From contig JAKSOH010000001.1 in the NCBI GenBank assembly GCA_024405675.1, forward strand, positions 22,748 to 86,747: a stretch of 64,000 nt of DNA, read 5' to 3'. This document shows, one piece after another, positions 5,183-43,590 of this stretch; the first letter of the stretch is position 1, and each line of letters opens with the position of its first letter. The notes beneath the pieces were generated by a model that saw nothing but the letters and a program-made list of their open reading frames with translations, was not told the origin of the DNA and did not search any database. A program made the position numbers and the translations under genes. The stretch is from Victivallaceae bacterium. Lineage in GTDB: Bacteria > Verrucomicrobiota > Lentisphaeria > Victivallales > Victivallaceae.

Positions 5183-7237
5183 CTACTTCTCCTCCTGCTT
5201 GAATTCGAAAAACTCGGCCTCGTCGATATGATCCACTGTGAAAGACAGCATTCCGTTTTCAAGAACAAATGGGACGCCGCTTCCATCGGATACCCTGACC
5301 AATCTGAAAACTCCGCCGGCCGGTGTCATCAGGCGGATTTTTACATCGCGCAGCGGGACCGGCGGCAGATCGTCCTGATAATTGACCACGGCGACGCAAC
5401 GTGTCGTCCCGCCTTCGTCCGCGAGAAGCGTCAGTTCTGCTGATTTCGGCAGATTCGCGCATTCCACCGGAGGCTTTACATAACGGAGCACTGTCTCTCC
5501 CGCAAACCTACGGTGCGCATCATTACGACCAGTCATGACGTCATCGTATATGTATACGGCGAGTCCCTTTCCGTAGCGATGCTCAGACATTCCGACGAAT
5601 CCGCTGTCTTCGAGTCCCGGCGGATTCGAATGTATCGATGCGTACGACTCCGGGTCATCCGGTGGAAAATCCGGCATGTTGACCATTCCAAGCACATTGG
5701 TGTCGTTTTCAGCGGTCACCAGCGGAGCCGGAGCGTCGCAGAAGAGCCTTTCCCCGTCCTTCGACAAGTAGGAGACGCGTCCGGTCGACCTACCTGTCCA
5801 ATGGACGCCGAGCACATCGCCAAGGGAAAAGTCGCCGGAACCGGTGCCATCGTCCGCATGAATCGAAGTCCTCCCCGTGGCGATCAAGATGCCTCCTGAA
5901 TACACGTAGTTACGCATCTTCGATTCCTCGTCAGCCGGCAGATAGGCGGCGTTTCCCACCAGCACCAGATCGAATTTCGACCAGTCGATAGTGCGTTCCG
6001 TGACCAATTCATATGGTATGTGAAGTTCTGTCAGGACTCTGGACATGCCCATCGCCTCCTCCACTACCGCGTTGCGGCGAATCGACATGTTGTTGGAATC
6101 TGATTCCGACACCTTTTCCAGGGACACGGGGCCGGAACTTCCCACGCAGCTTGGCATGGAAAAATAGATGCCGACCGTCCCTTTTATGCGTAGCCCCTTG
6201 GAAACCGCCTTGCGGAATGGTTCCAGGCGTCTGTTAATATCGGACAGTGTCCGATAGAACTTCTCGCTGAGTGTTCCGTCCGGATTTATGGCGTCGATAA
6301 AGAAATAGGCGCCGCCGTTGGCCAGGGTAGTCAGCGCATGCATGCGCAGTTCGTCATCGCCCTTGGCCGACGTATGATCATGCAACGAGACGCATCTCGA
6401 GGTCATGAACTCGAACGGCCGGCGCGTCGTGAACGCGTCGAACGCCTTCACCGCGAACCGCTGTTGCATCTTGCCTCCGTAGAAATCGCCGCTGCAGTAG
6501 TCGCAGGCTTCCGCGATTCCGGACGACTGGCCGAGATACCAGCCGTGGAGAACCGGAGAAAACTGATGGGTCACGGTGATGTCGGGACGAAGATTCCGTA
6601 TGAACTGCGTGGTCCTGGCCGCATACTCCGCCATGGAACGCTCCCTGAACCGCTGGAACTTCACCCAATCCGGATTCTCCCAGTCGACCATCGTCGGTAT
6701 TTCAAGACCGCATTCGCGCCGAAACTTTTCGCGACAACAGTCGCAGCAACATATCATCGGCCAGAACGTCATGTCGACGAAGATGCCGCGCAGCTTCTTG
6801 TTCGTCAGGAATTCCGCCATCTGAGCGAAATGAAACTCGGCGGTTCCCGGATTGTTTGGACAGCCGTACCTATAGCGCCCGTGGCGGTCGCGACCGGAAA
6901 TGTCATGCTGTCGGCACTCCGGATGGCGACGCCAGATGTCGTTGTGAAAGATGTGGGTGTAGTAGGCGACCGGAACTATTCCCTCCCTGTCAAGCAAATC
7001 CACCACTTCGCCGAATATGTCCCTGCCACGCAATCCAGCATGCATATGCCCCACCTTGGTCGGATAGTAGCAGTTCCCGTTGTGATCGCAGGAGTACACC
7101 ATGGCCATTTCAACGCCGGACAACTTGACCAGTCGTACATATTCCTTCGGAGAATAGCGGCTCATGTATTCCGGTCTACAATCGGTGATGTGGTTGTCGA
7201 CCAACAACCGCGAATAGCATTTATCTAGCCAGCTCAT
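5183..7237 (-). CDS. GHL6-type putative glycoside hydrolase with C-terminal beta-galactosidase-trimerisation-like domain
   Basis: The N-terminus (LLVDNHI...YVRLVKLSGVEMAMVYSCDHNGNCYYPTKVGHMHAGLRGRDIFGEVVDLLDREGIVPVAYY) matches my recollection of Pfam GHL6 (PF14871). No signal peptide. Confidence 0.55.
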   Translation of the reverse strand: MSWLDKCYSRLLVDNHITDCRPEYMSRYSPKEYVRLVKLSGVEMAMVYSCDHNGNCYYPTKVGHMHAGLRGRDIFGEVVDLLDREGIVPVAYYTHIFHNDIWRRHPECRQHDISGRDRHGRYRYGCPNNPGTAEFHFAQMAEFLTNKKLRGIFVDMTFWPMICCCDCCREKFRRECGLEIPTMVDWENPDWVKFQRFRERSMAEYAARTTQFIRNLRPDITVTHQFSPVLHGWYLGQSSGIAEACDYCSGDFYGGKMQQRFAVKAFDAFTTRRPFEFMTSRCVSLHDHTSAKGDDELRMHALTTLANGGAYFFIDAINPDGTLSEKFYRTLSDINRRLEPFRKAVSKGLRIKGTVGIYFSMPSCVGSSGPVSLEKVSESDSNNMSIRRNAVVEEAMGMSRVLTELHIPYELVTERTIDWSKFDLVLVGNAAYLPADEESKMRNYVYSGGILIATGRTSIHADDGTGSGDFSLGDVLGVHWTGRSTGRVSYLSKDGERLFCDAPAPLVTAENDTNVLGMVNMPDFPPDDPESYASIHSNPPGLEDSGFVGMSEHRYGKGLAVYIYDDVMTGRNDAHRRFAGETVLRYVKPPVECANLPKSAELTLLADEGGTTRCVAVVNYQDDLPPVPLRDVKIRLMTPAGGVFRLVRVSDGSGVPFVLENGMLSFTVDHIDEAEFFEFKQEEK

Positions 7238-31486: not shown

Positions 31487-33748
31487 TTACGGCAACAAAC
31501 CGTTGATTTTCATCCAACTAGTCATCGCGTCGGCCCAGGGCAATGCATTCTTGTACGGATACACATCCTTCAATCCCTGGCCGTGCCTGCCGTTCTGGTA
31601 GATATGCAGCTCGCACGGCACGTTGTTCCTGCGCAGCGCGGAGTAGAAGGCGATGCTGTTGTCCGGTGGCACGGCCTGGTCCATCGAGGTGTGCCAGATG
31701 AAGCATTTAGGGGTTTTTTCCGTGACGTTGAGATCGGCCGACATCTTCGCCGCTTCCGCGTTGTCGACATCGCCAAGCAGCATCTTGCGCGATCCCTCGT
31801 GTGTTAGCGGCGGCGTCATTGAGATGACCGGATAGCAAAGCATTCCAAAGTCCGGACGTGAACTTTCCCGCTCGACGGAATCCGCGTCATCCGGTCGTCC
31901 GGCATCGCAGTTAGTCATCAGCGTGGCCGCCAGATGTCCGCCGGCCGACGAACCCATGACGCCGACGCAATCCGGTCTTATGCCGTATTTGCCGGCCATG
32001 GCCCTGATCGTGCGCATGGCGCGCGTCGCGTCGAGAAGCATCGCCGGATGGCGGTAGCCGTCCGAGCCGAGACGATATTTGAGAACGAACGCGGTGACGC
32101 CGTGGAGCGCCAGGTACTTCGCTAACTCCGGACCTTCGTGCCTGGCCAGCATCCGGTATCCGCCGCCAGGCAGTACCAGAACGGCGGTTCCGTTTGGTTC
32201 AGCCGGAACAAATGGCGTCAGCGTCGGGATGTCGGCGTCGTTTGCTCCCCTGGCCAGCGGCGCGTCGCCTTGCCACAGCCTCACGGCCGGTTCCTCGCGC
32301 ACCAAGTTTTTCTCTCCATCGAAAATGCCAAACATGATCGATCTCTCCTTTTCTTTGCCCAACAGCGACTTGAACTTGAACTTCCTTTTTTCTAGCTTGA
32401 CCTTGCGCCCGGTCCATTGTTCGAACTGGCGGAAGTCCTCCGCGTTGCCGATCAGCAGCGCGCCGTCTCTCAGTATGACGTCCTTGTGGAGATTCCATGA
32501 GGTTATGTCCTTGGATTCGCAGGCCGGAATCCTTTCCGGAGTGTAGTTTTCGATCACGCAGGCGAACCACCGCGTTCCGACCACCGCGGGGACTTTTTCC
32601 CCGGGCCGGACGCTGTTCCAGTATTCGATGGCCGGTTGCACGATTGCCATCGGCTCGGTGTGGAGTCGGTAGCTGGTCCGGTACAGCAGGTCCAGCGTGG
32701 TGCCGATGACCATTGCCGCGGTAAACGCGAGAAGCCAGATGAACATCCGGTGGAACATGCCGCGGTCGATCTCGAACGGCCACATCGCCACCATCGCGAT
32801 TCCGGTCCACGATGCCATGGTACAGAACCAGAGCATGACCACGGCGTTTCCGGTCATCGTCAGGATGATCAGGGCCAGTGGCGGGACGATGCTGACAACA
32901 AGCGAAGGAACTAGGAATACTGTACCCTCTTGGGTGCGCTTTGCGGACTTTCTCGCCGGAAGCCAGGCGAGCACCAGGGCGAGAAGCTCCATTGCGAACG
33001 GATAGAGCGCGGTCCCCGTCGATACGAACGGCTGGTCCCATGTCCAGTCGTTTTCAACGCGTCCTGTGCCGTGGCCGAAGCATATGAAGTCGTTACCGGC
33101 GAGCCATACGACGTGAGGCGATATCGTGATTGCGAAGACCGCCATCGCGAGATACGGACCGGATGTCGCGAGCTTCCTGCGCGCGTCGCGATTGGATAAG
33201 AATGCGATGGCGAACGCCAGCATGAAGAGTCCGAAGCTGTATTTGTTGAGGATGCCGAGCCCGGACGCAAGTCCGAATGCCGCCCATCTCAACGGGTTGT
33301 CGGTCGTCACCGCCGTGTAGAGAAAATAGGCGGCGGCCGGGGCCAGTGCCATCTCGACGAAGTAGGTCGAGAACTTCATGTCGCTCGGCGTGTAGTAGTG
33401 CAGGAAGTACAGTAGCATCGCCGCGACCGCCGACCGGTATTCGTCCCAGCGTTGTCGCGCCAGCGCGTAGACAAAGAGCACACCGGAGACGATGCAGACC
33501 TGGCAGAGCATGTACATGCTCCAGTCGGCATATCCGGATGCCGCGGAGACGAGGTAGCCTATCCAGCCGGAAAGAGGTGGGTGCTTGGCATGACCGAGAG
33601 CCATCTGGGCTCCCCACATGATGGTCTCGAGAATATCCATGCCGAGCACGTTCTGAAGCAGTGAGCATTGCAACGTCCAGACCAGCATGGAAGCCGCCAT
33701 GTAGATGAGCAGGACGGCCAACGGGCTAATGTGCTTTTCTGATTTCAT
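31487..33748 (-). CDS. fusion protein: GT-C (ArnT/PMT_2-like) membrane glycosyltransferase + C-terminal alpha/beta-hydrolase carbohydrate esterase
   Basis: First ATG at 33748. N-terminal ~480 aa are polytopic, with LETIMWG...HAKHPPLSGWIGY in loop 1. C-terminal ~270 aa have esterase motifs VLPGGGY (oxyanion HGGG-type), GSSAGGH (nucleophile elbow GxSxG) and a late D/H (MDQAVP, GRHGQG). Confidence 0.75.
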   Translation of the reverse strand: MKSEKHISPLAVLLIYMAASMLVWTLQCSLLQNVLGMDILETIMWGAQMALGHAKHPPLSGWIGYLVSAASGYADWSMYMLCQVCIVSGVLFVYALARQRWDEYRSAVAAMLLYFLHYYTPSDMKFSTYFVEMALAPAAAYFLYTAVTTDNPLRWAAFGLASGLGILNKYSFGLFMLAFAIAFLSNRDARRKLATSGPYLAMAVFAITISPHVVWLAGNDFICFGHGTGRVENDWTWDQPFVSTGTALYPFAMELLALVLAWLPARKSAKRTQEGTVFLVPSLVVSIVPPLALIILTMTGNAVVMLWFCTMASWTGIAMVAMWPFEIDRGMFHRMFIWLLAFTAAMVIGTTLDLLYRTSYRLHTEPMAIVQPAIEYWNSVRPGEKVPAVVGTRWFACVIENYTPERIPACESKDITSWNLHKDVILRDGALLIGNAEDFRQFEQWTGRKVKLEKRKFKFKSLLGKEKERSIMFGIFDGEKNLVREEPAVRLWQGDAPLARGANDADIPTLTPFVPAEPNGTAVLVLPGGGYRMLARHEGPELAKYLALHGVTAFVLKYRLGSDGYRHPAMLLDATRAMRTIRAMAGKYGIRPDCVGVMGSSAGGHLAATLMTNCDAGRPDDADSVERESSRPDFGMLCYPVISMTPPLTHEGSRKMLLGDVDNAEAAKMSADLNVTEKTPKCFIWHTSMDQAVPPDNSIAFYSALRRNNVPCELHIYQNGRHGQGLKDVYPYKNALPWADAMTSWMKINGLLP

Positions 33749-35456
33749 ATGGTTTCTTCCTGCTTTCAAAACCTGGTTTCTTGCTCTCTAGTTCTCTTTC
33801 CCTGGCCGACGGAAAGTAGGCGACGTGGAAGCTTCGCCTCTTCATCGGGCCGAGAAGCGATTTGTATGAATACACGCGCTTTTCCCACGTCACCGGGTAG
33901 TTGACGTGGGGATAGAACTCCAATGTATTTTCCGGATCTCCCAACATGATTGCGCCGTGCTCGAGGATGTCATCGCCGTAGAGTTTCCAGGTGATCTCGT
34001 CTTCGGTATCGTATCCGCGGATTGCGCCCTTGGAATAGTTTTCCATCAACTGCGCGTACCAGCGGTTGGCAATGGCATATCGAGGCATCTCGCCCGGGCG
34101 GAATTTGTGCCAGTGATCGAGGACGATGTCCTTGATTACCTCGGGATTGGAATGGAGCCGGGGGGCCGTGGCTAGCGCCGTGTATGCGGTTTGGGCGATG
34201 TAGAGGAGCATCGTGAACCCCACGAGCAACCACCAGACGGTCCGGAAGAACTTGCGTCCGACGGCATACGACGCCGGCAACGCCGCCAGCAGGAAAGCCC
34301 CGCTAAGGCTTTCCATGGTGGAGAACCACTTCATTATCACCTCGCTGCCTGCCGCCGCCATGGCGATCAGTGCGAGTTTCGGTATTCCGGTGACGCACAG
34401 GGCGCCACAGAACAATGCCGGGCAGCCAATCCAGTGCGGAAAGTTGTTTCGCCGTTTGGAAGCGATTCGCTTTTTCAACCAAAACCTTTTCGAAAACAGT
34501 TTTTTCCACTGCATGCGGGGAAAGTTGTTCCGCCAGTCTGCCACGATTTCCTTTTTCGACCACATTCTTTTTGAAAACAAACTTTCTCCGGTTTCCCTTC
34601 GGCCTAGAAACCATGTTATCAGGAGCACCCCGCCCATGAGTAGCAATGGATACACCGCGGTTCCGAATGCCACGAACGGCGTGGTCCAGTCATGTTTCTC
34701 ATGCATCCTGATGTTGACGTGGCCAAGGCAGCAGAAGTCGTTTTCCGTCAGCCATTCGACGTGTGGGAAGATCACCGCGGTGAACACAATCAAGGCGAGC
34801 CACGGCCCGGGGGTCAGGAGTTTCCCGCGGCGTTTCGCGTCGATCAGCATGTAGACGGCGGCTCCGGCCAGGAATAGGCCGAAACTGTATTTGTTCAGCA
34901 TGCCCAGTCCGGAGACGAATCCGAATATCAGCCATCTCCAGAACTCGCCGAGCTTTTCCGTCCGGGTGGTTGCGCGCCATGCCGCGTCTTGCGATGCGGC
35001 AGAGAAGAAGAGGAGGAACGCGATGGGGAACAACGCTATCTCCGCATCGTACGTGGAAAATCGCATCCACCCGGGGTTGTAGGAGTCGAATAGAAAGTAG
35101 AGCAGCATCGCTCCTGTGGCCGATTTGTGGCGATCCCAGAACTGCCGCATTGTCAGATAGCTGAACGACACCCCGCAGATCAGGCATAGCTGGCAGAGCA
35201 GGTAGCTCCCCCAGTCGGAATACCCGGAGAGGACGGCCGCCGCATGGCCGATCCATCCGGAAAGCGGCGGGTGCTGCCAGTGGCCCCAGGTTTTCTGGGC
35301 CCCCCATGTGATGGTTTCCAACGCGTCGCCCCCGAGTACGTTCTGCAGTACGCAGCACTGCAGCGTCCACAGTATGGCGGACAACGCCATGTAGACGAAC
35401 ATCGCTCGCACCGGATTTCCGAAGAGCCACTCGTCGACACGGCCGTTCGATTTCAT
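33726..35456 (-). CDS. GT-C (ArnT/PMT_2-like) membrane glycosyltransferase, paralogue of the downstream fusion gene
   Basis: First ATG at 35456 (AAGGA upstream). Shares LETITWG...HWQHPPLSGWIGH and the periplasmic C-terminal domain with 31487-33748, but lacks the esterase. Its end overlaps the next gene by 23 nt. Confidence 0.75.
   Translation of the reverse strand: MKSNGRVDEWLFGNPVRAMFVYMALSAILWTLQCCVLQNVLGGDALETITWGAQKTWGHWQHPPLSGWIGHAAAVLSGYSDWGSYLLCQLCLICGVSFSYLTMRQFWDRHKSATGAMLLYFLFDSYNPGWMRFSTYDAEIALFPIAFLLFFSAASQDAAWRATTRTEKLGEFWRWLIFGFVSGLGMLNKYSFGLFLAGAAVYMLIDAKRRGKLLTPGPWLALIVFTAVIFPHVEWLTENDFCCLGHVNIRMHEKHDWTTPFVAFGTAVYPLLLMGGVLLITWFLGRRETGESLFSKRMWSKKEIVADWRNNFPRMQWKKLFSKRFWLKKRIASKRRNNFPHWIGCPALFCGALCVTGIPKLALIAMAAAGSEVIMKWFSTMESLSGAFLLAALPASYAVGRKFFRTVWWLLVGFTMLLYIAQTAYTALATAPRLHSNPEVIKDIVLDHWHKFRPGEMPRYAIANRWYAQLMENYSKGAIRGYDTEDEITWKLYGDDILEHGAIMLGDPENTLEFYPHVNYPVTWEKRVYSYKSLLGPMKRRSFHVAYFPSARERELESKKPGFESRKKPYEIRKAH
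34438..34580 (-). repeat. imperfect 81-nt (27-codon) tandem duplication inside the GT-C paralogue
   Basis: GGAAAGTTGTTtCGCC...CTTTTTCaACCA...GAAAACA at 34438-34499 recurs at 34519-34580. It encodes LFSKRMWSKKEIVADWRNNFP and LFSKRFWLKKRIASKRRNNFP in a basic loop. Confidence 0.8.
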
Positions 35457-35539
35457 TTTCCGTCCTTTCAATTGCCTGATTGCACGCTATCGTTTAAACT
35501 AGCATTTTCATGACGTCAAGTAAATTGCGAATCGGGATT

Positions 35540-36304
35540 TCATCCGGTGTATCCGGGGATGAAGCAAATGGTTCGCGTTTCGCCGTCCCCGACTATCTTG
35601 CACCGGCATCCGTAAGCGCTTCCCAGGTTTTCGGGCGAGAGCGTTTCCGTCGTTGCTCCGGATGCAACCACCTTTCCGTTCCCGATGAGAACCGCGTTTT
35701 CGGCGTATCGCATGGCCAACTGCAGATCGTGCGTCACAACGACGACCGACTTTGTTTTTGCGAGCAGGGACAGTGATTCCATGGTGTCCATGGCCCTGGC
35801 GACGTCCATGCTGGCGGTCGGTTCGTCTAGAAGCAGTATCTTTGTATTCTGCGCTACCACGGTCGCCAGCATGACGCGCTGACGCTCGCCCCCGGAAAGT
35901 TCCGCTAACGTCCGTCCGACCAGCCGGTCCACGTCGAACATTCGCATGGCGCGTTCCACGATTCCATCGTCGCACTTCCCGGGCGATGCGAACGCCGACA
36001 TCCATGCGTTCCGGCCAAGCATCACTGTTTCGCGCACTCCAAGCGCCGCCGTGTTTTGTTCCTGCGGCAGATACGATACCAGCTTCGCCCGGCGTTCTTT
36101 TACCATGCCGCCTGCGCCGTCGATTATTATTTCGCCGGCTGACGGCTTTAGAATTCCGGCGGCCAGTCTAAGCAGCGTGCTCTTGCCGGATCCGTTCGGT
36201 CCTACTATGGTTGAAAGTCCGTGTCCAGTAACCGAAAACGACACGTCAGAAAGTACGCGGTTTTTTCCGTATTCAAAGAAAAGATGATTGAATTCGATTT
36301 TCAT
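35540..36304 (-). CDS. btuD: ABC transporter ATP-binding protein, iron-siderophore/cobalamin (FepC/BtuD) type
   Basis: Real start is ATG 36304, overlapping the permease stop (ATGA). Walker A GPNGSGKST, signature LSGGERQR, Walker B LLLDEPT. The tracked 445-aa ORF has a spurious Arg-rich extension. Confidence 0.85.
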   Translation of the reverse strand: MKIEFNHLFFEYGKNRVLSDVSFSVTGHGLSTIVGPNGSGKSTLLRLAAGILKPSAGEIIIDGAGGMVKERRAKLVSYLPQEQNTAALGVRETVMLGRNAWMSAFASPGKCDDGIVERAMRMFDVDRLVGRTLAELSGGERQRVMLATVVAQNTKILLLDEPTASMDVARAMDTMESLSLLAKTKSVVVVTHDLQLAMRYAENAVLIGNGKVVASGATTETLSPENLGSAYGCRCKIVGDGETRTICFIPGYTG

Positions 36305-37242
36305 GATCGCCTCCCTGCCAGTATCGCGACCAGGAAAATTCCGCCGATGCATGATGTCACCACTCCTACCGGGAGTTCCGCCACCGTTCCAACCGAGCGC
36401 GCGATCAGGTCGCAGACCATGAGGAAAAGCCCTCCGTATGCCGCGCATGGAACAATCGAACGCCGGTGGTCGCCTCCGTGCAGTTTTCGCACCGCGTGGG
36501 GAACGATCAGCCCGACGAATCCAATGATTCCAACTAGCGCCACGGAGCACGACGTCAGCAATGACGATATCGCGACTAAAACCATGCGTAACGCATGGGG
36601 ATTGTCGCCAAGACCCCAGGCGGTCTCGTCGCCAAGCAGCAGGGCGTTCATGCGTCCGGCGAGTCCTCTCAGAAGGACCAGCGCCGCTAGCGTCAGTCCG
36701 GCGGTTGCTGCAAGCGGAATGATGTCCGTGACCTGGAGGTCGCCAAGCAACCACCAGGTGATGCCGGCCAGTTCCTCGGCAGGGGCGATCGAGACCAGCC
36801 AGATTAGCGCACTGCTGGATATGGTCGCCACGGCCACGCCGGAGAGAATCAGCGATTCGCAGCCTCGGCGTCCGCATACCGCTACCGCGGCAAGCGCGAA
36901 TATCGCACCGATGAAAGCGCAGATCGGAACCGCACAGCCGAACGCGGCGGCCAGTCCGGTGACGAAGGCAATTGCCGCTCCAAGCGCCGCTCCGCCGGAT
37001 ATTCCGAGCGTGAATGGATCGGCCAGCGGGTTGTTAAGCGCTGTTTGGAGAGTTCCCCCGGACGTCGCAAGCGCGGCGCCTACAACTAGCGCGGCCAGTT
37101 GGCGAAGCATCCTGAGACGGCAAACCGGATCCAACGAGCCATCGGCGAACCATTCGGCCGGCGATATCCACCACGATCCGCCGCATGTTCCGATGAGGAA
37201 TGCCAGGGGAATGAGAATGACCGGTATCAATGTCTTGCGCAT
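36301..37242 (-). CDS. btuC: FecCD-family ABC permease (BtuC-like)
   Basis: 313 aa with AAGGAGG RBS. About 9 TM helices with FecCD motifs (GAALATSGGTLQTALNNPLADPFTLGISGGAALGA). Confidence 0.85.
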   Translation of the reverse strand: MRKTLIPVILIPLAFLIGTCGGSWWISPAEWFADGSLDPVCRLRMLRQLAALVVGAALATSGGTLQTALNNPLADPFTLGISGGAALGAAIAFVTGLAAAFGCAVPICAFIGAIFALAAVAVCGRRGCESLILSGVAVATISSSALIWLVSIAPAEELAGITWWLLGDLQVTDIIPLAATAGLTLAALVLLRGLAGRMNALLLGDETAWGLGDNPHALRMVLVAISSLLTSCSVALVGIIGFVGLIVPHAVRKLHGGDHRRSIVPCAAYGGLFLMVCDLIARSVGTVAELPVGVVTSCIGGIFLVAILAGRRS

Positions 37243-38051
37243 TCCAGCATCCTCCTTAATTTTTCCGCGCCATCCGGCATCCGCGGTCCCGGACGAAGCA
37301 CTGTAGAATCGCTTCTCAGGTCGAATACCTTTTTGTTCTTGACCGCTTCAAGCGTTCCCCAGAATCCGTCTCTGGCGTCGGGCGGAGGACCGGCCGCCGC
37401 CCATAGCACCACGTCGGGCCGGGCCTTTATCACGTAATCACGCGACATCCTGAAGTAGGCCGTCCTCCTGACGTCGCCGATGTTTTCTGCTCCGGCGAGT
37501 TGGGTCATTTCAGAGAGGAAGGAGTCGCTTCCTGCGGAAATCAGCGGGGAGTCGGACAGCACCCACAGCACTTTGGCTCCATTGCGTGGAAGTTTTTTCA
37601 GGACGGAGATCCGCCCGTCGAACCGCTGCCTTTCCGCCACGGTCCGCTTTTCGCAGCCCAGTTCCTTTCCCAGTCGCTCGAGCCAGAACAGATAGTCGGC
37701 GGAGTTCCTGCACGGATGGACAATGGTCTCGATGCCAAGAGAGCGCAACACCGATGCATGCGAGGGGACGATCAACGTGTCGGAAACAACCAAATCCGGC
37801 CTGGCTGCCGCTATTCGTTCCATGCTGGGGTTGCCGAATTCCCCGCACACGGGAAGCGCCATGGCCTCCTGGGGATAATCGCAGGCGCTGCTCCGTCCCG
37901 CGGCGCGTTCGCCGCCACCGATCAGGAATATGATTTCGGTAAGGGCAGGGGACAGAGACACCACTCTTTCAGCCGAATGCGCGGCAGGGCATGCGATCAG
38001 CAGTATCACCGTTAGCGCGATCAGCGCGTGATTCTGAATAAATTCTTGCAT
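37227..38051 (-). CDS. btuF: periplasmic cobalamin-binding protein (BtuF-like, class 8 PBP)
   Basis: Real start is ATG 38051. Signal peptide. Collinear with E. coli BtuF from memory: RVVSLSPALTEIIFLIG, NPSMERIAAARPDLVV, ...LRPGPRM. Confidence 0.8.
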   Translation of the reverse strand: MQEFIQNHALIALTVILLIACPAAHSAERVVSLSPALTEIIFLIGGGERAAGRSSACDYPQEAMALPVCGEFGNPSMERIAAARPDLVVSDTLIVPSHASVLRSLGIETIVHPCRNSADYLFWLERLGKELGCEKRTVAERQRFDGRISVLKKLPRNGAKVLWVLSDSPLISAGSDSFLSEMTQLAGAENIGDVRRTAYFRMSRDYVIKARPDVVLWAAAGPPPDARDGFWGTLEAVKNKKVFDLRSDSTVLRPGPRMPDGAEKLRRMLECARH

Positions 38052-38803
38052 ATCTTCACCTCGTCTTCTCCGCCGAACCAGCCCAGTCCGGCATTGAGCA
38101 TTTCCGCCTCCCCGCTTCCCCATCCCGAGGTCGTGTAGGTTATGGGACCGTTCGACGTTGCGTGGCCGTCCGCCCATGACACCGACGCCCTGTCTCCGTG
38201 CAGGAAGTGCATCGTCGGTTGCGCCTTCCCCATTCCGGAATCCCGCCCCATCGCGTCGATGAACAACGGCGGACATAGGTCGGATTGCTGGATATAGAGT
38301 CCCGATGACATCCCGGCGTTGTCGGAGAACATTATCGTCCTCGCGGGAGCCGTGACCTGCGCGGTGCACGCAGGTATAGCCAGGGTTCCCATGTATTCCG
38401 TCGCCCCGACCGCGGTCGAATATCCATAGGAGCCGCATCCGTTGTTGCCGCCTTCTTGTTGCAGATCCGCGGCCGGGCAGTCCCGAACGTCTTTGTCCCC
38501 TGCGTATTCCGCAAGACCTCCTTCGTCCGATATGTCGGACCCCCAGGTCCCTTTGGCGATGCCGCACCAGTAGTTGTTGCCCTGGCAGCTAGGCACGAAT
38601 TGGTTCTTCCAGTTCGATGCGTACATGATGTTGGCGCAGGCCAACTGCCTGACATTCGCCTGACACTTGACGGCGGCGCCGAATCCCCTTGCCTTTATCA
38701 GGCCCGGACCCAGTAGTGCGGCCAGCAGGCTTATGATGGTGATTACCACCAGCAGTTCCATCAGGGTGAAACACCCGATGCGACGACCTGGTGTCGTCTT
38801 CAT
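38021..38803 (-). CDS. prepilin-type N-terminal methylation-domain protein, DUF1559 / H-X9-DG family (type II secretion pseudopilin-like)
   Basis: N-terminus RRIGCFTLMELLVVITIISLLAALL. C-terminal H-X9-DG motif HGDRASVSWADG. First ORF downstream of the cobalamin riboswitch. Overlaps the btuF-like start by 31 nt. Confidence 0.85.
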   Translation of the reverse strand: MKTTPGRRIGCFTLMELLVVITIISLLAALLGPGLIKARGFGAAVKCQANVRQLACANIMYASNWKNQFVPSCQGNNYWCGIAKGTWGSDISDEGGLAEYAGDKDVRDCPAADLQQEGGNNGCGSYGYSTAVGATEYMGTLAIPACTAQVTAPARTIMFSDNAGMSSGLYIQQSDLCPPLFIDAMGRDSGMGKAQPTMHFLHGDRASVSWADGHATSNGPITYTTSGWGSGEAEMLNAGLGWFGGEDEVKICKNLFRITR

Positions 38804-38809
38804 GATTTC

Positions 38810-38945
38810 CTTTCCCCGCGTCTCTCGCGCGGCGAATGACGGAACGGCGGATCGGGATCTGGCTACGCGTCATGATTGGCGCTCACAGTTGCGGGACAGC
38901 TCCGGATTCTCACCGGATTCACCGAAAAACGGCCGTCGTTCCTCT
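38810..38945 (-). promoter_or_regulatory. cobalamin (B12) riboswitch
   Basis: The minus-strand leader contains GGTGAATCCGGTGAGAATCCGGAGCTGTCCCGCAACTGTGAGC (rc of 38881-38923), matching the conserved cobalamin aptamer core GGGAA-GGUGxxAAUCC-GCxGxCCCGCAACUGU. A B12-box-like AGCCAGATCCCGATCCGCC follows. Closing helix GGAACGACGG (38933-38942) / CCGCCGTTCC (38841-38850). Hairpin CCGCG-N7-CGCGG lies next to the RBS. Confidence 0.72.
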
Positions 38946-38962
38946 TCGTTTTAAAAACAGCA

Positions 38963-41344
38963 CTAGAAGATGCCCAGGCCGTCAAGCAACCTGACGGCGG
39001 ACATCGCATCCTTAGTATAGTGGTCGGCGCCTATGGCGTCGGCCGTCTCCTCGGTCAGCACCGCTCCGCCGACCCAGATCGGGGCGAAGCATCCGGCTTT
39101 CTTCAACAGGGATATCGTCTTTTCCATGTTCGGGACCGTGGTGGTCATCAACGCGCTCAGGCCGACGACCTTTGGTGCATATTTTCTCCAGGCCCCGACG
39201 ACATCCTCGGCCTTGACGTCTTTGCCCAGGTCAATCACTCCGTAACCATAGCTTTGCAGAACCACCTTGACGATGTTCTTTCCAATGTCGTGGATGTCTC
39301 CCTCCACGGTGCATATCATCACCGGACCCTTAGCCGCCGAAGCGGACGGCAGCTTGGTTTGGATGACTTCGAAAGCCGCCTTGGCCGCCTCCGCGGACCG
39401 CAGCAGCTGCGGGAGGAACAACTTTCCTGACTCGTAGTCGTGTCCGACCGAGTCTAGGGTCGGAATGACCGTGCGGTCCACTACGTCCAGCGGTTCCCGC
39501 CCAGCTAGTTCCGCTTGTGCCAGCAGCCTTGCCTTGTCCGCAAGTCCGCGATAGATGGCCTGTTCCAATGTGTCATCCGTCTCCAATGTCGGTTGTACTG
39601 TTTTTGTCGCCGTTGTCGTCGTCGTTGTCGCGTCATCGGCATGGCGTCCGATATAGACTGTCGCACCGGAGTCTGAACCATCCAAAACGGCAAAGGCGTC
39701 GACCGTGCCCGTCATCTGTGTGTCGAGCGGATTGATTATCGGCATGTCGAGACCATCCTCCAGCGCCATGGCGAGGAAAGTACGGTTCAGCAGCTGGCGG
39801 TTGGGCAATCCAAACGACACGTTGGAGACGCCGAGCGCGGTGAGCATGCCGCGTTTCGAAACGCTACGGAGCGCCTTCAGCGTCTCCCGTACCGCTGATT
39901 GCTGTGCGGATGCGGTCAGGGTAAGGCAGTCGACGACAATCCTACTTTCCGGAATGCCGAACTCCGCGGCTTTCGCAACAATCCGGTCGACTATGGCCAA
40001 ACGTTCTTCCGCCGTTTCCGGTACGGAGTCGTCGAGCGCCAGTGCGATGACAATGGCGCCGTACTTCGCCGCGATCGGCAGTATGGCGTTCATGGACGAC
40101 TGCTTGCCATTGACGGAATTGATTATCGGCCGACCGTTGTAGCACCGGCATGCGGCCTCCACCGCCTTCGGGTCCGACGAGTCGATCTGCAGCGGCAGGT
40201 CAACGACTTCCTGCAGCATGGGAATGACCTTGCGCAACGTTTCCGCCTCGTCTATTCCGGGCAGTCCGACGTTCACGTCGAGTACATCGGCGCCGGCCTC
40301 GTCCTGACGTATGGCCTCGGCCACGAGATAATCCAGCCGTCCCTCACGCAAGGCCGATTGCATTTTCTTCTTGCCGGTTGGATTTATGCGTTCGCCGCAT
40401 ACTACCGGCCGTCCTCCGAATACCACCGTCTTGGTGCCGGAGGAGACGGCAGCCGGAGCGACGACATGTCTCTTGGCGACGTTTCTTGGCAACATTCTTT
40501 TCATGGCCGCGATATGTTCCGGGGTGGTGCCGCAGCAACCGCCGGCAACCGCGATTCCGGATTTCGCGAACGCCGCCATGGCGCTTGCGAATTCATCCGG
40601 ACCTACCGGAAATACTGTCGTTCCATCTCGGATTTCCGGTATTCCGGCGTTGGGCTGCACGAGCACGGGCACCGTCGCGCTGGCCAGGAGTTCGTTGACC
40701 ATCGGTTCTATTTCAACCGGCCCCAGCGAGCAGTTGACGCCTATCGCATCAACGCCCAGTCCCTCCGCTACGTTGACGAAAGTTCGCACATCGGTTCCGG
40801 TCATGGTTCTTCCATTCTTCTCGAAGGTCATGGATGCAAACACCGGAAGATTAGAATGTTCCTTCGCGGCCAGAATCGCGGCTTTGAGTTCGTAGAGATC
40901 GGTCATCGTCTCCAGTAGCACCACGTCCACGTCGTCCGCCGCTATGGATATGATTTCCGAAAAGACATCGCATGCCTCGTCGAACGGCAGCGTTCCTATC
41001 GGTTGGAGCATTCGGCCGATTGGTCCGATGTCGAGCGCCACCGCGGTGGACTTTTTGCATTTCCTCACTGCGTTCCGGGCGTTTTTCACCGCCGATTCTA
41101 CCAATAGTCGAACGTCGTGGCGACATTCCGCCATGCGCAGCCGGTTGCATCCGAAGGTGTTGCAACTGACGATATCGGCTCCGGCGGCCAGATAGGACTC
41201 GTGTATTTGCGATATGAGTTCCGGGCAGTCGACGTTGAGTTCCTCGGGGAAGCGCACCATTGGGGCTTTCGCCTTCTGTATCATGGTGCCCATTCCGCCG
41301 TCGAAAACGAGCAGCCTCTTGTCAAATCCTTCCAGCATTTTCAA
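38963..41344 (-). CDS. metH: cobalamin-dependent methionine synthase, short form lacking the reactivation domain
   Basis: Hcy-methyltransferase N-terminus (VFDGGMGTMIQ), pterin-binding domain, B12-binding DxHxxG motif (EGDIHDIGKN). 793 aa, so there is no AdoMet activation domain. Confidence 0.9.
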   Translation of the reverse strand: MKMLEGFDKRLLVFDGGMGTMIQKAKAPMVRFPEELNVDCPELISQIHESYLAAGADIVSCNTFGCNRLRMAECRHDVRLLVESAVKNARNAVRKCKKSTAVALDIGPIGRMLQPIGTLPFDEACDVFSEIISIAADDVDVVLLETMTDLYELKAAILAAKEHSNLPVFASMTFEKNGRTMTGTDVRTFVNVAEGLGVDAIGVNCSLGPVEIEPMVNELLASATVPVLVQPNAGIPEIRDGTTVFPVGPDEFASAMAAFAKSGIAVAGGCCGTTPEHIAAMKRMLPRNVAKRHVVAPAAVSSGTKTVVFGGRPVVCGERINPTGKKKMQSALREGRLDYLVAEAIRQDEAGADVLDVNVGLPGIDEAETLRKVIPMLQEVVDLPLQIDSSDPKAVEAACRCYNGRPIINSVNGKQSSMNAILPIAAKYGAIVIALALDDSVPETAEERLAIVDRIVAKAAEFGIPESRIVVDCLTLTASAQQSAVRETLKALRSVSKRGMLTALGVSNVSFGLPNRQLLNRTFLAMALEDGLDMPIINPLDTQMTGTVDAFAVLDGSDSGATVYIGRHADDATTTTTTATKTVQPTLETDDTLEQAIYRGLADKARLLAQAELAGREPLDVVDRTVIPTLDSVGHDYESGKLFLPQLLRSAEAAKAAFEVIQTKLPSASAAKGPVMICTVEGDIHDIGKNIVKVVLQSYGYGVIDLGKDVKAEDVVGAWRKYAPKVVGLSALMTTTVPNMEKTISLLKKAGCFAPIWVGGAVLTEETADAIGADHYTKDAMSAVRLLDGLGIF

Positions 41345-41351
41345 TTCCGTT

Positions 41352-41900
41352 CTAGTTTTCCTGTATACCGGTTATTCCTAGGATCGATTTCTGCGGGATG
41401 AACATTCCGCCTTCCGTCAGCGATATTCCAGTTGTTCTCGCAATGTCCAGGGTTTCGCAAAGCATATGGTTCAGCGCGAGCGGTATGTCTCCGTATCCCG
41501 GAGCCATTCTGAATGTACGCCCGGTTCCAATGACCCGGTCCTCGTATTCGTCCAGCATTTCCTCCAGTATCGCCGACGCCGCCGCGTCATGCGTCACGCA
41601 ACTGCCCATGTCTGTCACTTGCATGCGTCTGAGCAACCGTTCCACGCCCATTCCAAGCGTTCCTGCCACCACCGCGACTTCGACGCAACCGGCGAATTCC
41701 GCGACGAGGTCGCTCGATTCCAAGTCTATGCCGAAATCAGTCATCCTGCCTTTGCTGTAATGCGATCGGTAGACGGCCGCCCTGAACTCGCTGGCGTCGA
41801 TTATCGCGTCTACCGCCTTGTCTAGGCCGGGCACGTCTTCAGCCGCCGTTGCGCGGAGATAGCCGGCGGCCACGCCGGCGGCATGTCTCCGGTCAATCAC
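41352..41900 (-). CDS. stand-alone methionine synthase activation (reactivation) domain protein
   Basis: Motifs FRMAPGYGDIPL...ISLTEGGMFIPQKSILGITG resemble the MetH C-terminal activation domain (PF02965). Start proposed at GTG 41900, overlapping the metF stop as GTGA. The tracked ATG 41927 is the alternative. Confidence 0.65.
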   Translation of the reverse strand: MIDRRHAAGVAAGYLRATAAEDVPGLDKAVDAIIDASEFRAAVYRSHYSKGRMTDFGIDLESSDLVAEFAGCVEVAVVAGTLGMGVERLLRRMQVTDMGSCVTHDAAASAILEEMLDEYEDRVIGTGRTFRMAPGYGDIPLALNHMLCETLDIARTTGISLTEGGMFIPQKSILGITGIQEN

Positions 41901-42763
41901 CCGACGATGTTCCTGATTCCGTCGCAAATGCGACGCGCCACCGCCGGATTGTTCATGGTGTAGAGGTGTATTCCACGCACGTCGTGCGCCAGCAGGTCGA
42001 TGATTTGATTTATCGCATAGTATAATCCGGCGTCGAACAACGCATCGCGGTTCTCTCCGAACTTCCGGATTATCCTCTCGAGTCCGTCGGTCAGCGTCGC
42101 TCCGCAGATTGTGATCATCTTCTGTATCAGGGCTGCGTTGATGACCGGCATTATTCCCGGAATCACCGGAATTTCGATTCCCGACAACCGGCAGTCCTCC
42201 AGATGGCGGTAGAAGCGGTCGTTGCCGAAAAAGAGCTGCGAAAGCAGGAACTCCGCGCCGGCATCGACCTTTTTCCTGAGATTGCGAATCTCGCTAACCC
42301 GGTCGGCGGATTCCGGATGTATTTCCGGATAGCAGGCGCCGGCCACCGTGAAGTCATATTTCGACTTGAGATAGGAGACCAGGTCGGACGCGTGGGCGAA
42401 GTCGTCCTTCGCCGGGACCTGCGGACTGCGGTCTCCGCGGAGGGCCAGGATGTTTTCAAGACCTTCGTCCATGAGTTGCCTGGCGAATTCGTCGATCTCC
42501 TGCTTCGAATAGCAGAAGCATGTCAGATGGACTAGCGGTTCGATGCCGTATTGGTCTTTAATCTTCTTTGCCAGCGCGATGGTGCGGTTCCGGTTAGTGC
42601 TTCCGGCTGCGCCGAAGGTCACGCTGATGAAATCCGGATGCAATTCCGCGAGAATGTCCAGCGTCGGGTCGATGTTTTCGAGTTCCGAATCCTTCTTCGG
42701 CGGGAATATCTCGAATGACAGCACCGGCTTGGGTTTGTTCGTGTATATATTGCTTATCTTCAT
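41897..42763 (-). CDS. metF: 5,10-methylenetetrahydrofolate reductase
   Basis: Real start is ATG 42763 (GGAGGA upstream, ATGA overlap with the trmH stop). MetF motifs SFEIFPPK, ISVTFGAAGS, LVHLTC, ILALRGD. Confidence 0.9.
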   Translation of the reverse strand: MKISNIYTNKPKPVLSFEIFPPKKDSELENIDPTLDILAELHPDFISVTFGAAGSTNRNRTIALAKKIKDQYGIEPLVHLTCFCYSKQEIDEFARQLMDEGLENILALRGDRSPQVPAKDDFAHASDLVSYLKSKYDFTVAGACYPEIHPESADRVSEIRNLRKKVDAGAEFLLSQLFFGNDRFYRHLEDCRLSGIEIPVIPGIMPVINAALIQKMITICGATLTDGLERIIRKFGENRDALFDAGLYYAINQIIDLLAHDVRGIHLYTMNNPAVARRICDGIRNIVG

Positions 42764-43590
42764 TTGGTTCCTCCGTTGGATGCCGTGCGGAAATCGCGCT
42801 GCCTGGCCGCTTCGTAGAGCAGTACGGTCGCCGCAGTGGAGACGTTTAACGAATCTATCTTGCCGAGCATGGGAATGACCACTTTCATGTCGGCTCCGTT
42901 CATCCAGAAGTCGGTAAGACCGGTCTGCTCGGCCCCGACCACTATCGCCGTCGCCTTCGTCAAGTCGACGTCGGTGTACTTGAGATCGGTGTGGGGAGTC
43001 GCTGCCAATGTCGCCACATCGTGTCTGCGGAGCCACGCCATGGCCTCCTCGTTGGTGCATTCCGCGAGCGGCATGGAGAATATCGCGCCTGTGCTCGCCC
43101 TTATGACGTTGGGGTTGTAGATGTCGGTGCCTTTTTCGCAGACGATGACACCATCGGCGCCGACCGCATCGGCGCTCCGCAGCATCGACCCGAGGTTTCC
43201 GGGCTTTTCTATCGTTTCCGCCACCATGTAGAGTCCGTTGGGGACGAACTTCATGCTGGCGAGATCGTGGTTGCGCATTTTCGCCACCGCTAGCAACCCC
43301 TCCGGCCGGTCGCGATAGGACACCTTCTCCAGGAGTCCGGGCGCGAGCCGGCGCACGGATATGCCGCTTTTTGCCAGACTCTCCAGCAACGGGTATTCGT
43401 TTTCACCGAGAAACAGTTCCGGTGAGAAGAAGCACTCGGTCAGCGTCATACCGTATTCCACGGCCCGTGTCAGTTCGCGGTAGCCTTCGAGCAGCGTGAG
43501 TCGCTCCCGGTCGCGGTGGCGGCGGTCGCGTAACTTCACTAGATGTTTCATCGCGTCGTTCTTGGCGCTGGTTATGATGTCGAATTCCAT
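42760..43590 (-). CDS. TrmH/SpoU-family RNA 2'-O-methyltransferase
   Basis: Real start is ATG 43590. SpoU motifs NLGSMLRSADAVGADGV, IVVGAEQTGL, IPMLGKIDSLNVSTAATVLLYE. Confidence 0.85.
   Translation of the reverse strand: MEFDIITSAKNDAMKHLVKLRDRRHRDRERLTLLEGYRELTRAVEYGMTLTECFFSPELFLGENEYPLLESLAKSGISVRRLAPGLLEKVSYRDRPEGLLAVAKMRNHDLASMKFVPNGLYMVAETIEKPGNLGSMLRSADAVGADGVIVCEKGTDIYNPNVIRASTGAIFSMPLAECTNEEAMAWLRRHDVATLAATPHTDLKYTDVDLTKATAIVVGAEQTGLTDFWMNGADMKVVIPMLGKIDSLNVSTAATVLLYEAARQRDFRTASNGGTK

Follow-up and report, generated by a model that had tools for sequence, protein, structure and literature searches.

Background

Class II cobalamin riboswitches (clan CL00101: RF00174, RF01482 and RF01689) combine a conserved core, the B12 box and helices P1-P6 with a truncated P6, a loop L5 that pairs, with covariation, beside the Shine-Dalgarno (SD) sequence, and a B12 transporter downstream. 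The env8 HyCbl riboswitch is an example of this compact type, with translation controlled by a kissing loop between L5 and L13, and the same loop is the logic of the class II cobalamin riboswitches that act on translation. In E. coli, BtuB/TonB works together with BtuFCD, which consists of a binding protein, a FecCD permease and an ABC ATPase, under cobalamin riboswitch control. In Bacteroidetes, uptake loci with B12 riboswitches also encode the non-transporter proteins BtuG, BtuH (DUF4465) and BtuJ, which are surface lipoproteins that accompany BtuB and act ahead of the core transporter (PMC13398666; bioRxiv 10.1101/2025.07.01.662609; PMC13616437). The DUF4465 domains of the BtuH type are experimentally established B12 binders (PMC13398666). 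Here we report the analysis of a 64 kb stretch of genome DNA from a gut Victivallaceae bacterium (the window, on whose numbering all coordinates are given), in which a cobalamin riboswitch is followed by the gene of a pilin-like H-X9-DG protein and by btuF-, btuC- and btuD-like genes.

Pseudopilins and type IV pilins (GspG, PilA, ComGC) share an FTLxELLVV helix with glutamate at +5 (E+5), and have a long alpha-1 and a beta-rich head. Classical prepilin peptidases require Gly at -1, and competence pseudopili, which take up DNA, are a precedent for import. Few paralogue families in Planctomycetota, Verrucomicrobiota and Lentisphaerota are as large as that of the H-X9-DG/DUF1559 proteins; in Planctopirus these proteins are the largest paralogue group, with 68 copies of unknown function, two of which are essential (PMC10632474, 2023), and DUF1559 bears the Pfam label SBP_bac_10 (PMC2754498). 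Our search of the accessible literature gave no paper linking prepilin-type, DUF1559 or H-X9-DG proteins to cobalamin, and nothing relevant on pseudopilins together with B12 or on Victivallis together with B12 riboswitches. The recent B12-uptake papers found by way of DUF4465 have Bacteroidetes or the DUF4465 family as subject, and the full text of PMC13398666 mentions neither pilins nor the Planctomycetes-Verrucomicrobia-Chlamydiae (PVC) phyla. While riboswitch and btuFCD are of kinds already known, what is new is a pilin-like H-X9-DG subfamily as a conserved member of the B12 regulon, and the locus is, as judged from its sequence, one for B12 uptake to which an accessory component of a new type has been added.

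A cobalamin riboswitch ahead of a pilin-like gene

Between the stop codon of the methionine synthase gene metH (38963-38965) and the next ATG (38803) there is a gap of 159 nt on the minus strand. The gap and the four overlapping open reading frames (ORFs) behind it hold the following features:

38832..38952, minus strand: cobalamin riboswitch aptamer (RF00174 above the gathering score; orthologous leaders alignable)
38801..38831, minus strand: predicted expression platform (sequence reading and L5/L13 covariation)
38021..38803, minus strand: pilin-like H-X9-DG protein, 260 amino acids (aa) (TIGR02532 match; first ORF behind the riboswitch)
37227..38051, minus strand: BtuF-like periplasmic binding protein, 274 aa (Peripla_BP_2, 5.9e-26; 31-nt overlap with the pilin gene)
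36301..37242, minus strand: BtuC-like FecCD permease, 313 aa (FecCD, 2.5e-70; 16-nt overlap with btuF)
35540..36304, minus strand: BtuD-like ABC ATPase, 254 aa (ABC_tran, 1.6e-26; 4-nt ATGA overlap with btuC)

An initial annotation of this stretch had proposed a cobalamin riboswitch between metH and a first regulated gene for a prepilin-type H-X9-DG protein that overlaps btuFCD, and had suggested a covariance-model search with RF00174. This search gives a significant match at 38832-38952 (-), with 35.5 bits where the gathering score is 31.5 (E 2.4e-5) and over the full length of the model (1-189; Rfam), while in the whole 64 kb the Rfam families match this riboswitch and one tRNA only, with no second riboswitch. 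The ORFs and their motifs agree with the proposal, and the ORF coordinates and the overlaps of 31, 16 and 4 nt are exactly as annotated. The gap of 159 nt, the aptamer core (38922-38880, minus strand), the AGCCAG element and the closing helix are likewise all located; in the P1 helix, GGAACGACGG (38942-38933) pairs with CCGCCGTTCC (38850-38841) at 9 of 10 positions, with one A.C mismatch. Because its P6 extension is cut to 6 nt, compared with 57 in the Rfam model, the aptamer is, on sequence grounds, a compact, class-II-like cobalamin riboswitch. It shares with the class II elements the core, the B12 box, helices P1-P6, the truncated P6, the covarying pairing of L5 beside the SD and the place ahead of a B12 transporter, whereas its L5 (UCCCG, 38896-38892) is one nucleotide shorter than the Rfam consensus, and it starts 11 nt past the metH stop without a recognisable promoter of its own. 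Minimum free energy folding of the window leader is uninformative (z-score 0.82). The alignment of 18 leaders, from the window and 17 other loci, shows the cobalamin architecture with compensatory changes in 17 of 28 predicted pairs; the hairpin after GAA occurs as CCGG/CCGG, CAGG/CCTG, CCAG/CTGG and CCCG/CGGG.

The platform consists of a hairpin CGCG-AGAGA-CGCG, a proposed L13 CGGG (38818-38815), the SD AAAGGA (38813-38808) and the start codon (38803-38801). L13 abuts the SD and is complementary to CCCG of L5 (38895-38892). In the relatives, a conserved GUGCGCGUAAC stands 5-7 nt before the SD GAAAGGA, and the CGCG within it is complementary to L5. The two segments are as follows (L5 / partner):

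Most relatives: CGCG / CGCG
L029: CGUG / CACG
L001, L009 and L011: UGCG / CGCA
Window: CCCG (38895-38892) / CGGG (38818-38815)

Over seven distinct variants the four L5-L13 pairs are 100% paired, three of the four are changed on both sides, and the covariation score is reached by 0 of 500 shuffles, although it counts against our reading that the L13 segment of the window was picked by its position beside the SD, a choice that makes pairing more likely. Behind the window aptamer there is no hairpin with a U-tract that would resemble a terminator. Since the kissing loop adjoins the SD and a U-tract is missing, the platform points to a translational OFF switch rather than to terminator control. 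When cobalamin is bound, L5 (CCCG) would dock on the CGGG directly 5' of the SD of the first gene and block the entry of ribosomes. Because the four ORFs overlap, this repression could then be passed on to btuF, btuC and btuD through translational coupling and the loss of ribosome protection.

As to the transcript, a sigma-70 promoter scan of 35300-39400 found no site, and between the metH stop and the riboswitch, which begins 11 nt beyond it, there is neither a promoter-like nor a terminator-like site. Read-through from metF-metH is therefore a plausible source of the transcript. The relatives have their own promoter-like site (TTGCAA-17-TGnTATATT) just upstream of P1, whereas the window has none. 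The proposal of the initial annotation that the riboswitch is an internal attenuator of a metH read-through transcript thus stands only as far as the read-through is concerned, while the platform looks translational and the relatives have the promoter-like site just named.

Each of the four starts in the operon is preceded by an SD of the AGGA/GGAGG type. The BtuF-like protein has a signal peptide and a possible lipobox (LIAC). Among the NCBIfam models, the best for the three transporter proteins are BtuF (8.2e-19, 67.8 bits, cut-off 234), BtuC (7.2e-58, 196 bits, equivalog cut-off 334) and the corrinoid ABC transporter ATPase (2.8e-61, 208 bits, cut-off 537). The composition is that of E. coli BtuFCD under a cobalamin riboswitch, but with proteins under the equivalog cut-offs and with a pilin-like gene in first position. 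Unlike E. coli with its BtuB/TonB, no BtuB-like TonB-dependent receptor is found in the operon, as had been annotated, nor among the 18 window ORFs, mostly the largest, that were put through Pfam.

Conservation of the riboswitch-pilin order

We then present a view of this locus in other genomes. Using the head domain only, 30 loci were taken from GTDB species representatives, comprising 26 close homologues, 3 distant ones and 1 from Phycisphaerales (L031). All 26 close loci belong to metagenome-assembled genomes (MAGs) of Lentisphaeria/Victivallaceae from animal guts. In the loci of the nearest homologues the pilin gene is followed by a Peripla_BP_2 gene; in some of them a second pilin paralogue or a small ORF rich in Cys separates the two. 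At the gathering threshold Rfam reports no riboswitch in these nearest loci; at an E-value threshold, a match of the cobalamin clan lies directly upstream of the pilin gene in each, with scores of 45-46 bits for RF01482 (45-48 bits over the relatives; gathering score 50) and 29 bits for RF00174. In 16 of the 26 close loci, nhmmer with the window leader as sole query detects a homologue of this leader, on the coding strand and shortly before the pilin gene. The same 16 are recovered by a custom covariance model (R1) built from the 18-leader alignment, which matches them partly by construction and to that extent weakens our case; the nhmmer search, whose query was the window leader by itself, and Rfam support it independently. 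In addition, L017 and L019 have a longer riboswitch, which RF00174 matches with 47.1 and 39.2 bits and thus over its gathering score. As 4 of the 26 loci are cut by contig ends, 22 are assessable, and 18 of these have a riboswitch directly upstream of the pilin gene (16 compact and 2 longer).

In 15 of the 26 close loci the gene directly downstream of pilin encodes a BtuF homologue, while btuC and btuD are adjacent in the window only. The annotated linkage of pilin and btuFCD therefore has to be narrowed, in that pilin with btuF is the usual arrangement and the full btuFCD set is exceptional. Several loci have a riboswitch and a pilin gene without any btuF, namely those of Victivallis vadensis (L008/L016), L017 and L025, and also L041 outside the close set. 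Because of them, the pilin gene itself is, from its genomic contexts, the regulated gene.

The same order is also seen in distant lineages, with the genes downstream of the riboswitch given in order:

L031, Phycisphaerales: RF00174 (81.7 bits); DUF4465 + PEP-CTERM protein (1.4e-49), 641-aa PATR/dockerin/PEP-CTERM protein, pilin (4-nt overlap)
L036, metagenome: RF00174 (72.9 bits); 695-aa protein, then pilin
L039/L040, on 24 contigs: RF01482, the AdoCbl model (46.7 bits, gathering score 50); pilin, BtuF-BtuC fusion, BtuD
L041, NCBI MAG: RF01482 (47.7 bits); pilin
L166, NCBI MAG: RF00174 (38.5 bits); pilin, then DUF4465 + PEP-CTERM protein
L090: riboswitch, pilin, 482-aa ORF, btuF, btuC, btuD
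L151, high GC: riboswitch, 628-aa ORF, pilin, btuD, btuC, btuF

A riboswitch-first scan of metagenome contigs with the short-L5 core pattern (CTGT-YSY-GCAAC) found at least 120 contigs from many environments, and among the matches listed 5 contigs, L090 and L151 being two of them, have a pilin-like gene downstream. The pattern itself is an observation in its own right: it occurs in soils, sediments and guts (L042-L161), so that the compact short-L5 variant is, by this sequence criterion, widespread and not specific to Lentisphaeria. Overall, the distant pilin-type operons contain DUF4465 twice (L031 and L166) and full btuFCD sets three times, and the riboswitch-pilin order stands behind at least three different types of cobalamin riboswitch. 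Eight other paralogues (L033-35, L038 and L162-165) have no riboswitch and lie in unrelated contexts. Y128, F159, H199, F200, G241 and G244 are common to the riboswitch-linked proteins and rare in the unlinked paralogues. A rough neighbour-joining tree built from 56 pilin-like sequences does not tell a single origin of the B12 linkage from several. On the whole, the association of riboswitch and pilin, often with btuF, is strong, lineage-wide and spread across several riboswitch types.

These contexts bear on the simplest alternative, that the riboswitch serves btuF(CD) and a pilin paralogue landed between them by chance, with no role in B12. The superfamily is indeed enormous (83,616 cluster representatives at E<=1e-3) and of no known function, and the window protein fails the family hidden Markov models. 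Such an insertion would hardly explain a riboswitch-pilin order that is found in 18 of the 22 assessable genomes and with at least three types of riboswitch, nor the loci that lack btuF altogether, and the L13 and SD elements belong to the start of the pilin gene itself. In the 64 kb, a scan for the FTLxELL motif finds just one ORF of the pilin type, which means that a high local density of pilin genes is not the cause of the juxtaposition, and the signature residues are held in common by the linked proteins. Since the synteny is conserved, we regard a chance passenger as largely excluded and give it very little probability. The recurrent linkage, in close loci and distant lineages alike, instead supports the suggestion of the initial annotation that this paralogue belongs to the B12 regulon, and the absence of linkage in relatives, which it had named as grounds for withdrawing the idea, is not what we find.

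Some further observations concern the loci of the relatives. A small ORF of 80-88 aa, absent from the window, lies between pilin and btuF in L005 (6834-7100), L001 (6972-7214) and L006 (1008-1274); it has a start like that of a signal peptide or lipoprotein and two CxxC pairs (a weak zinc-ribbon match), and judging from its position it may be another component of the B12 regulon. Two tandem pilin-like paralogues stand behind one riboswitch in L001/L007 (7229-8299), L004 (4755-5720 and 6001-7002), L009 (6869) and L011 (4439 and 5923), which would fit a pair of major and minor subunits or a recent duplication. In L011, a 177-nt tandem repeat (5545-5945; 2.3 copies, 89% matches) spans the sequence coding for the pilin N-terminus (..PFTLIELLV..), so that pseudo-N-termini are repeated in frame ahead of the genuine one. 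Similar additional SAFTLIE.LVS.TCQ fragments, together with a conserved leader MPYNACKASASC..HIFRRKMLHTAEPCFIRSAFTLIELL, are found in L006, L013, L015, L017-L019 and L021, a set that includes all four close homologues without a detectable riboswitch (L013, L015, L018 and L021). In L039 (6898-8517) and L040 (6841-8517) the BtuF-BtuC fusion joins Peripla_BP_2 to FecCD in 539-558 aa. The L031 (3064-5884) and L036 (3889-5976) operons are of the Phycisphaerales type, in which the riboswitch-controlled genes ahead of pilin encode surface proteins anchored by PEP-CTERM. Over its C-terminal half, the 695-aa protein of L036 shares 56% identity with the N-terminal half of the 641-aa protein of L031; this common region is without a Pfam match in L036 and could be another domain related to B12.

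The pilin-like protein and its possible role

The N-terminus of the window protein (..RRIGCFTLMELLVV..) has a class-III-type leader, MKTTPGRRIGC|FTLMELLVV, with F+1, E+5 and Cys at -1, and its C-terminal motif HGDRASVSWADG corresponds to H202-X9-D212G213, followed by H214. It matches TIGR02532 with 18.7 bits, above the cut-off of 16.3, while Pfam N_methyl stays under its cut-off (16.3 bits against 21.2); the best NCBIfam match is GspG, over residues 12-62 (1.2e-6). In total, 595 homologues were found. In an alignment of 83 full-length relatives, E16 (E+5), C47, C109, H202 and D212 are invariant, and F12 (F+1), Y61, G213 and H214 are at least 90% conserved. At -1, in contrast, the clade has C, A, P, N, H, T, K, V, S or R, with Gly confined to more distant members. 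The Cys that the initial annotation took as inserted between Gly and Phe of the cleavage motif is thus no insertion, as the alignment shows a variable, non-Gly -1 position.

Among the 83 relatives, PF07596 (DUF1559) is matched by 40 (E<=0.01, best 2.4e-12) and TIGR04294 by 31. Because so many full-length homologues match PF07596 and the window protein does not, the latter is, by profile comparison, a divergent relative of DUF1559 and not a scored member; the annotated membership holds through the homologues and not for the protein itself. C47, C109, Y61 and H-X9-DG-H are common to this protein and to the DUF1559 (PF07596, SBP_bac_10) and H-X9-DG (TIGR04294) families, with homology over the full length, while the small subgroup differs from them in its own signature residues and in riboswitch control. 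An exhaustive search of cluster representatives at 50% identity counts 83,616 with E<=1e-3, 988 with E<=1e-10 and just 14 with E<=1e-30, so that the window protein is placed, at the sequence level, in a small subgroup of a huge superfamily. On the whole, the sequence-level observations of the initial annotation are confirmed save the DUF1559 model match and the Cys insertion. From its interpretation we keep the riboswitch, the pilin-btuFCD operon and the recurrence of the riboswitch-pilin pair, and give up the Cys insertion, direct DUF1559 membership and part of the attenuator reading.

An AlphaFold2 model from the 83-sequence alignment (pLDDT 92.8, pTM 0.88) predicts a helix at 14-64 followed by a beta-rich head. 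The window protein thus resembles the pseudopilins and type IV pilins in its FTLxELLVV helix, E+5 and predicted long alpha-1 with beta-rich head, whereas it differs from GspG, PilA and ComGC in the Cys at -1, in a head of about 200 aa with no relative in the PDB, in having no assembly genes nearby and in its vitamin riboswitch. Foldseek against the PDB finds nothing at E<=0.001, with only a weak pilin match (1ay2, E 0.55), and a sequence-profile search of the PDB matches the pilin N-terminal helix only and nothing for the head. Neither a DUF4465 nor a BtuG beta-propeller domain is present in the window protein. We also considered D212-G213-H214 as a DxHxxG-type cobalt-ligand motif, and rejected it, as the spacing is wrong and the motif is invariant in riboswitch-free paralogues as well.

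Taken together, we think it probable that this is a vitamin B12 (corrinoid) acquisition operon whose pilin-like protein is an envelope-anchored component for corrinoid capture or relay before BtuF. The protein would capture or relay the corrinoid and hand it on to BtuF-BtuCD. It would be anchored either as part of a fibre of the pseudopilus type or, through its N-terminal helix, in the inner membrane, and its predicted disulfide-bonded, beta-rich head bears the H-X9-DG motif. Its part in corrinoid acquisition, its corrinoid binding, its location and its assembly state are all what we infer from the locus and the sequence, and we hold the fibre and the tethered form to be about equally likely. 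Like BtuG, BtuH and BtuJ, it is a non-transporter protein in a B12-riboswitch uptake locus and would act ahead of the core transporter, but it has no sequence or fold similarity to them and has a pilin-type N-terminus; the DUF4465 proteins of L031 and L166 are encoded as separate neighbours of the pilin-like gene.

In the fibre form, a processed, retractable fibre like those of the type II secretion system and type IV pili (T2SS/T4P) would take hold of cobalamin outside the cell, pull it through a secretin into the periplasm and so replace TonB-BtuB. We put this forward tentatively. The pilin architecture speaks for it, with the invariant E+5, the near-invariant F+1 and the predicted long alpha-1 helix, as do the lack of a TonB-dependent receptor in the operon and the scanned window ORFs and the presence of surface-anchored B12 binders of the PEP-CTERM/DUF4465 kind beside the pilin gene in L031 and L166. 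Planctomycetes have fibres like pili that bind dextran at crateriform structures (PMC5394234). As stated above, competence pseudopili import DNA, in a comparable way. On the other side stand the variable -1 residue, which is rarely Gly, and the loci examined, which have no linked gene for an assembly ATPase, platform protein, secretin or peptidase; moreover, the pilin-like H-X9-DG family is not known to form a fibre.

The non-Gly -1 residue, which argues against classical prepilin processing, speaks for the tethered form, in which the helix, cleaved or not, is an anchor and the head binds corrinoid or aids the docking of BtuF to BtuCD as a periplasmic binder or chaperone, in the manner of anchored solute-binding proteins and with no fibre. 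We consider this possible to a similarly limited degree. BtuF is the tightest and commonest partner, directly downstream in 15 of 26 loci, the conserved Cys47 and Cys109 suit a periplasmic disulfide-bonded domain, and the label SBP_bac_10 given to DUF1559 (PMC2754498) would agree with a binder. A second periplasmic binder nevertheless seems redundant beside a dedicated BtuF, the conserved F+1 and E+5 are typical of filament-forming pilins, and the predicted fold is pilin-like and not that of a two-lobed solute-binding protein.

Several points weigh against a role of the pilin-like protein in corrinoid capture or relay. Every genome in the analysis is a MAG, and L013, L015, L018 and L021 have no riboswitch detectable by R1 or by Rfam at E<=0.05. 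The window protein has no PF07596 or TIGR04294 match even at E<=10, where Pfam and NCBIfam yield N-terminal pilin models only. BtuF, BtuC and BtuD all score under their NCBIfam equivalog cut-offs, and among PDB relatives the BtuF-like protein is about equally near to heme/iron binders and to B12 binders; for these two reasons the corrinoid specificity of the transporter is a conclusion drawn from the riboswitch. The window protein has F+1 and E+5 but lacks the Gly at -1 of class III leaders, which makes its processing and its assembly into a fibre doubtful as far as the sequence goes. No secretin, GspE/F or prepilin peptidase is found among the scanned window ORFs or in the annotated flanks of the relatives, and the scanned window ORFs include no type II secretion component at all. 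Finally, the head has no solved structural relative by PDB profile search or Foldseek, so that no binding site can be argued for and no function read from the fold.

With these points in mind, the capture or relay reading may be significant for a family that is an orphan in function. A riboswitch is a ligand-specific label, and a subfamily found repeatedly behind cobalamin riboswitches, beside BtuF and validated DUF4465 binders, gives a candidate ligand and a simple assay. This is a direct experimental handle on the very large H-X9-DG/DUF1559 family and its first testable function. It suggests that gut Lentisphaeria take up B12 by an envelope step unlike the BtuB/BtuG/BtuH relay of Bacteroidetes, and such a different step bears on the competition for corrinoids in gut communities. 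A wider proposal, which we regard as speculative and rather unlikely, is that the subfamily forms or tips a retractable pseudopilus carrying cobalamin across the outer membrane without TonB-BtuB, and that by extension the tens of thousands of paralogues are ligand-specific capture pilins, the PVC counterpart of the TonB-dependent receptor/SusCD repertoires.

Other genes around the operon

Directly upstream of the riboswitch operon lies the gene of a short methionine synthase:

38963..41344, minus strand: short MetH, 793 aa (Pfam S-methyl_trans, 2.3e-72; Pterin_bind; B12-binding; B12-binding_2)

It has the homocysteine S-methyltransferase, pterin-binding and B12-binding domains, while the activation domain is absent. 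Upstream of metH, a 191-aa ORF (41352-41927, minus strand) has a weak match to the activation domain Met_synt_B12 (24.8 bits, cut-off 25), so the methionine synthase is, as predicted from these domains, split between the 793-aa MetH and a separate 191-aa ORF. Ahead of the split enzyme there is a 387-aa ORF (41897-43060, minus strand), which we take, by assumption and not from a domain scan, to be metF (methylenetetrahydrofolate reductase, MTHFR). Since the split metH genes directly precede the riboswitch operon, a B12-dependent methionine synthase and a B12 uptake operon may be on one transcript.

On the other side, directly downstream of btuD, two tandem PMT_2 (ArnT-like) glycosyltransferase paralogues are located at 33726-35471 and 31487-33769 on the minus strand, and the second of them carries a fused C-terminal alpha/beta-hydrolase domain (BD-FAE/Abhydrolase_3/Peptidase_S9).

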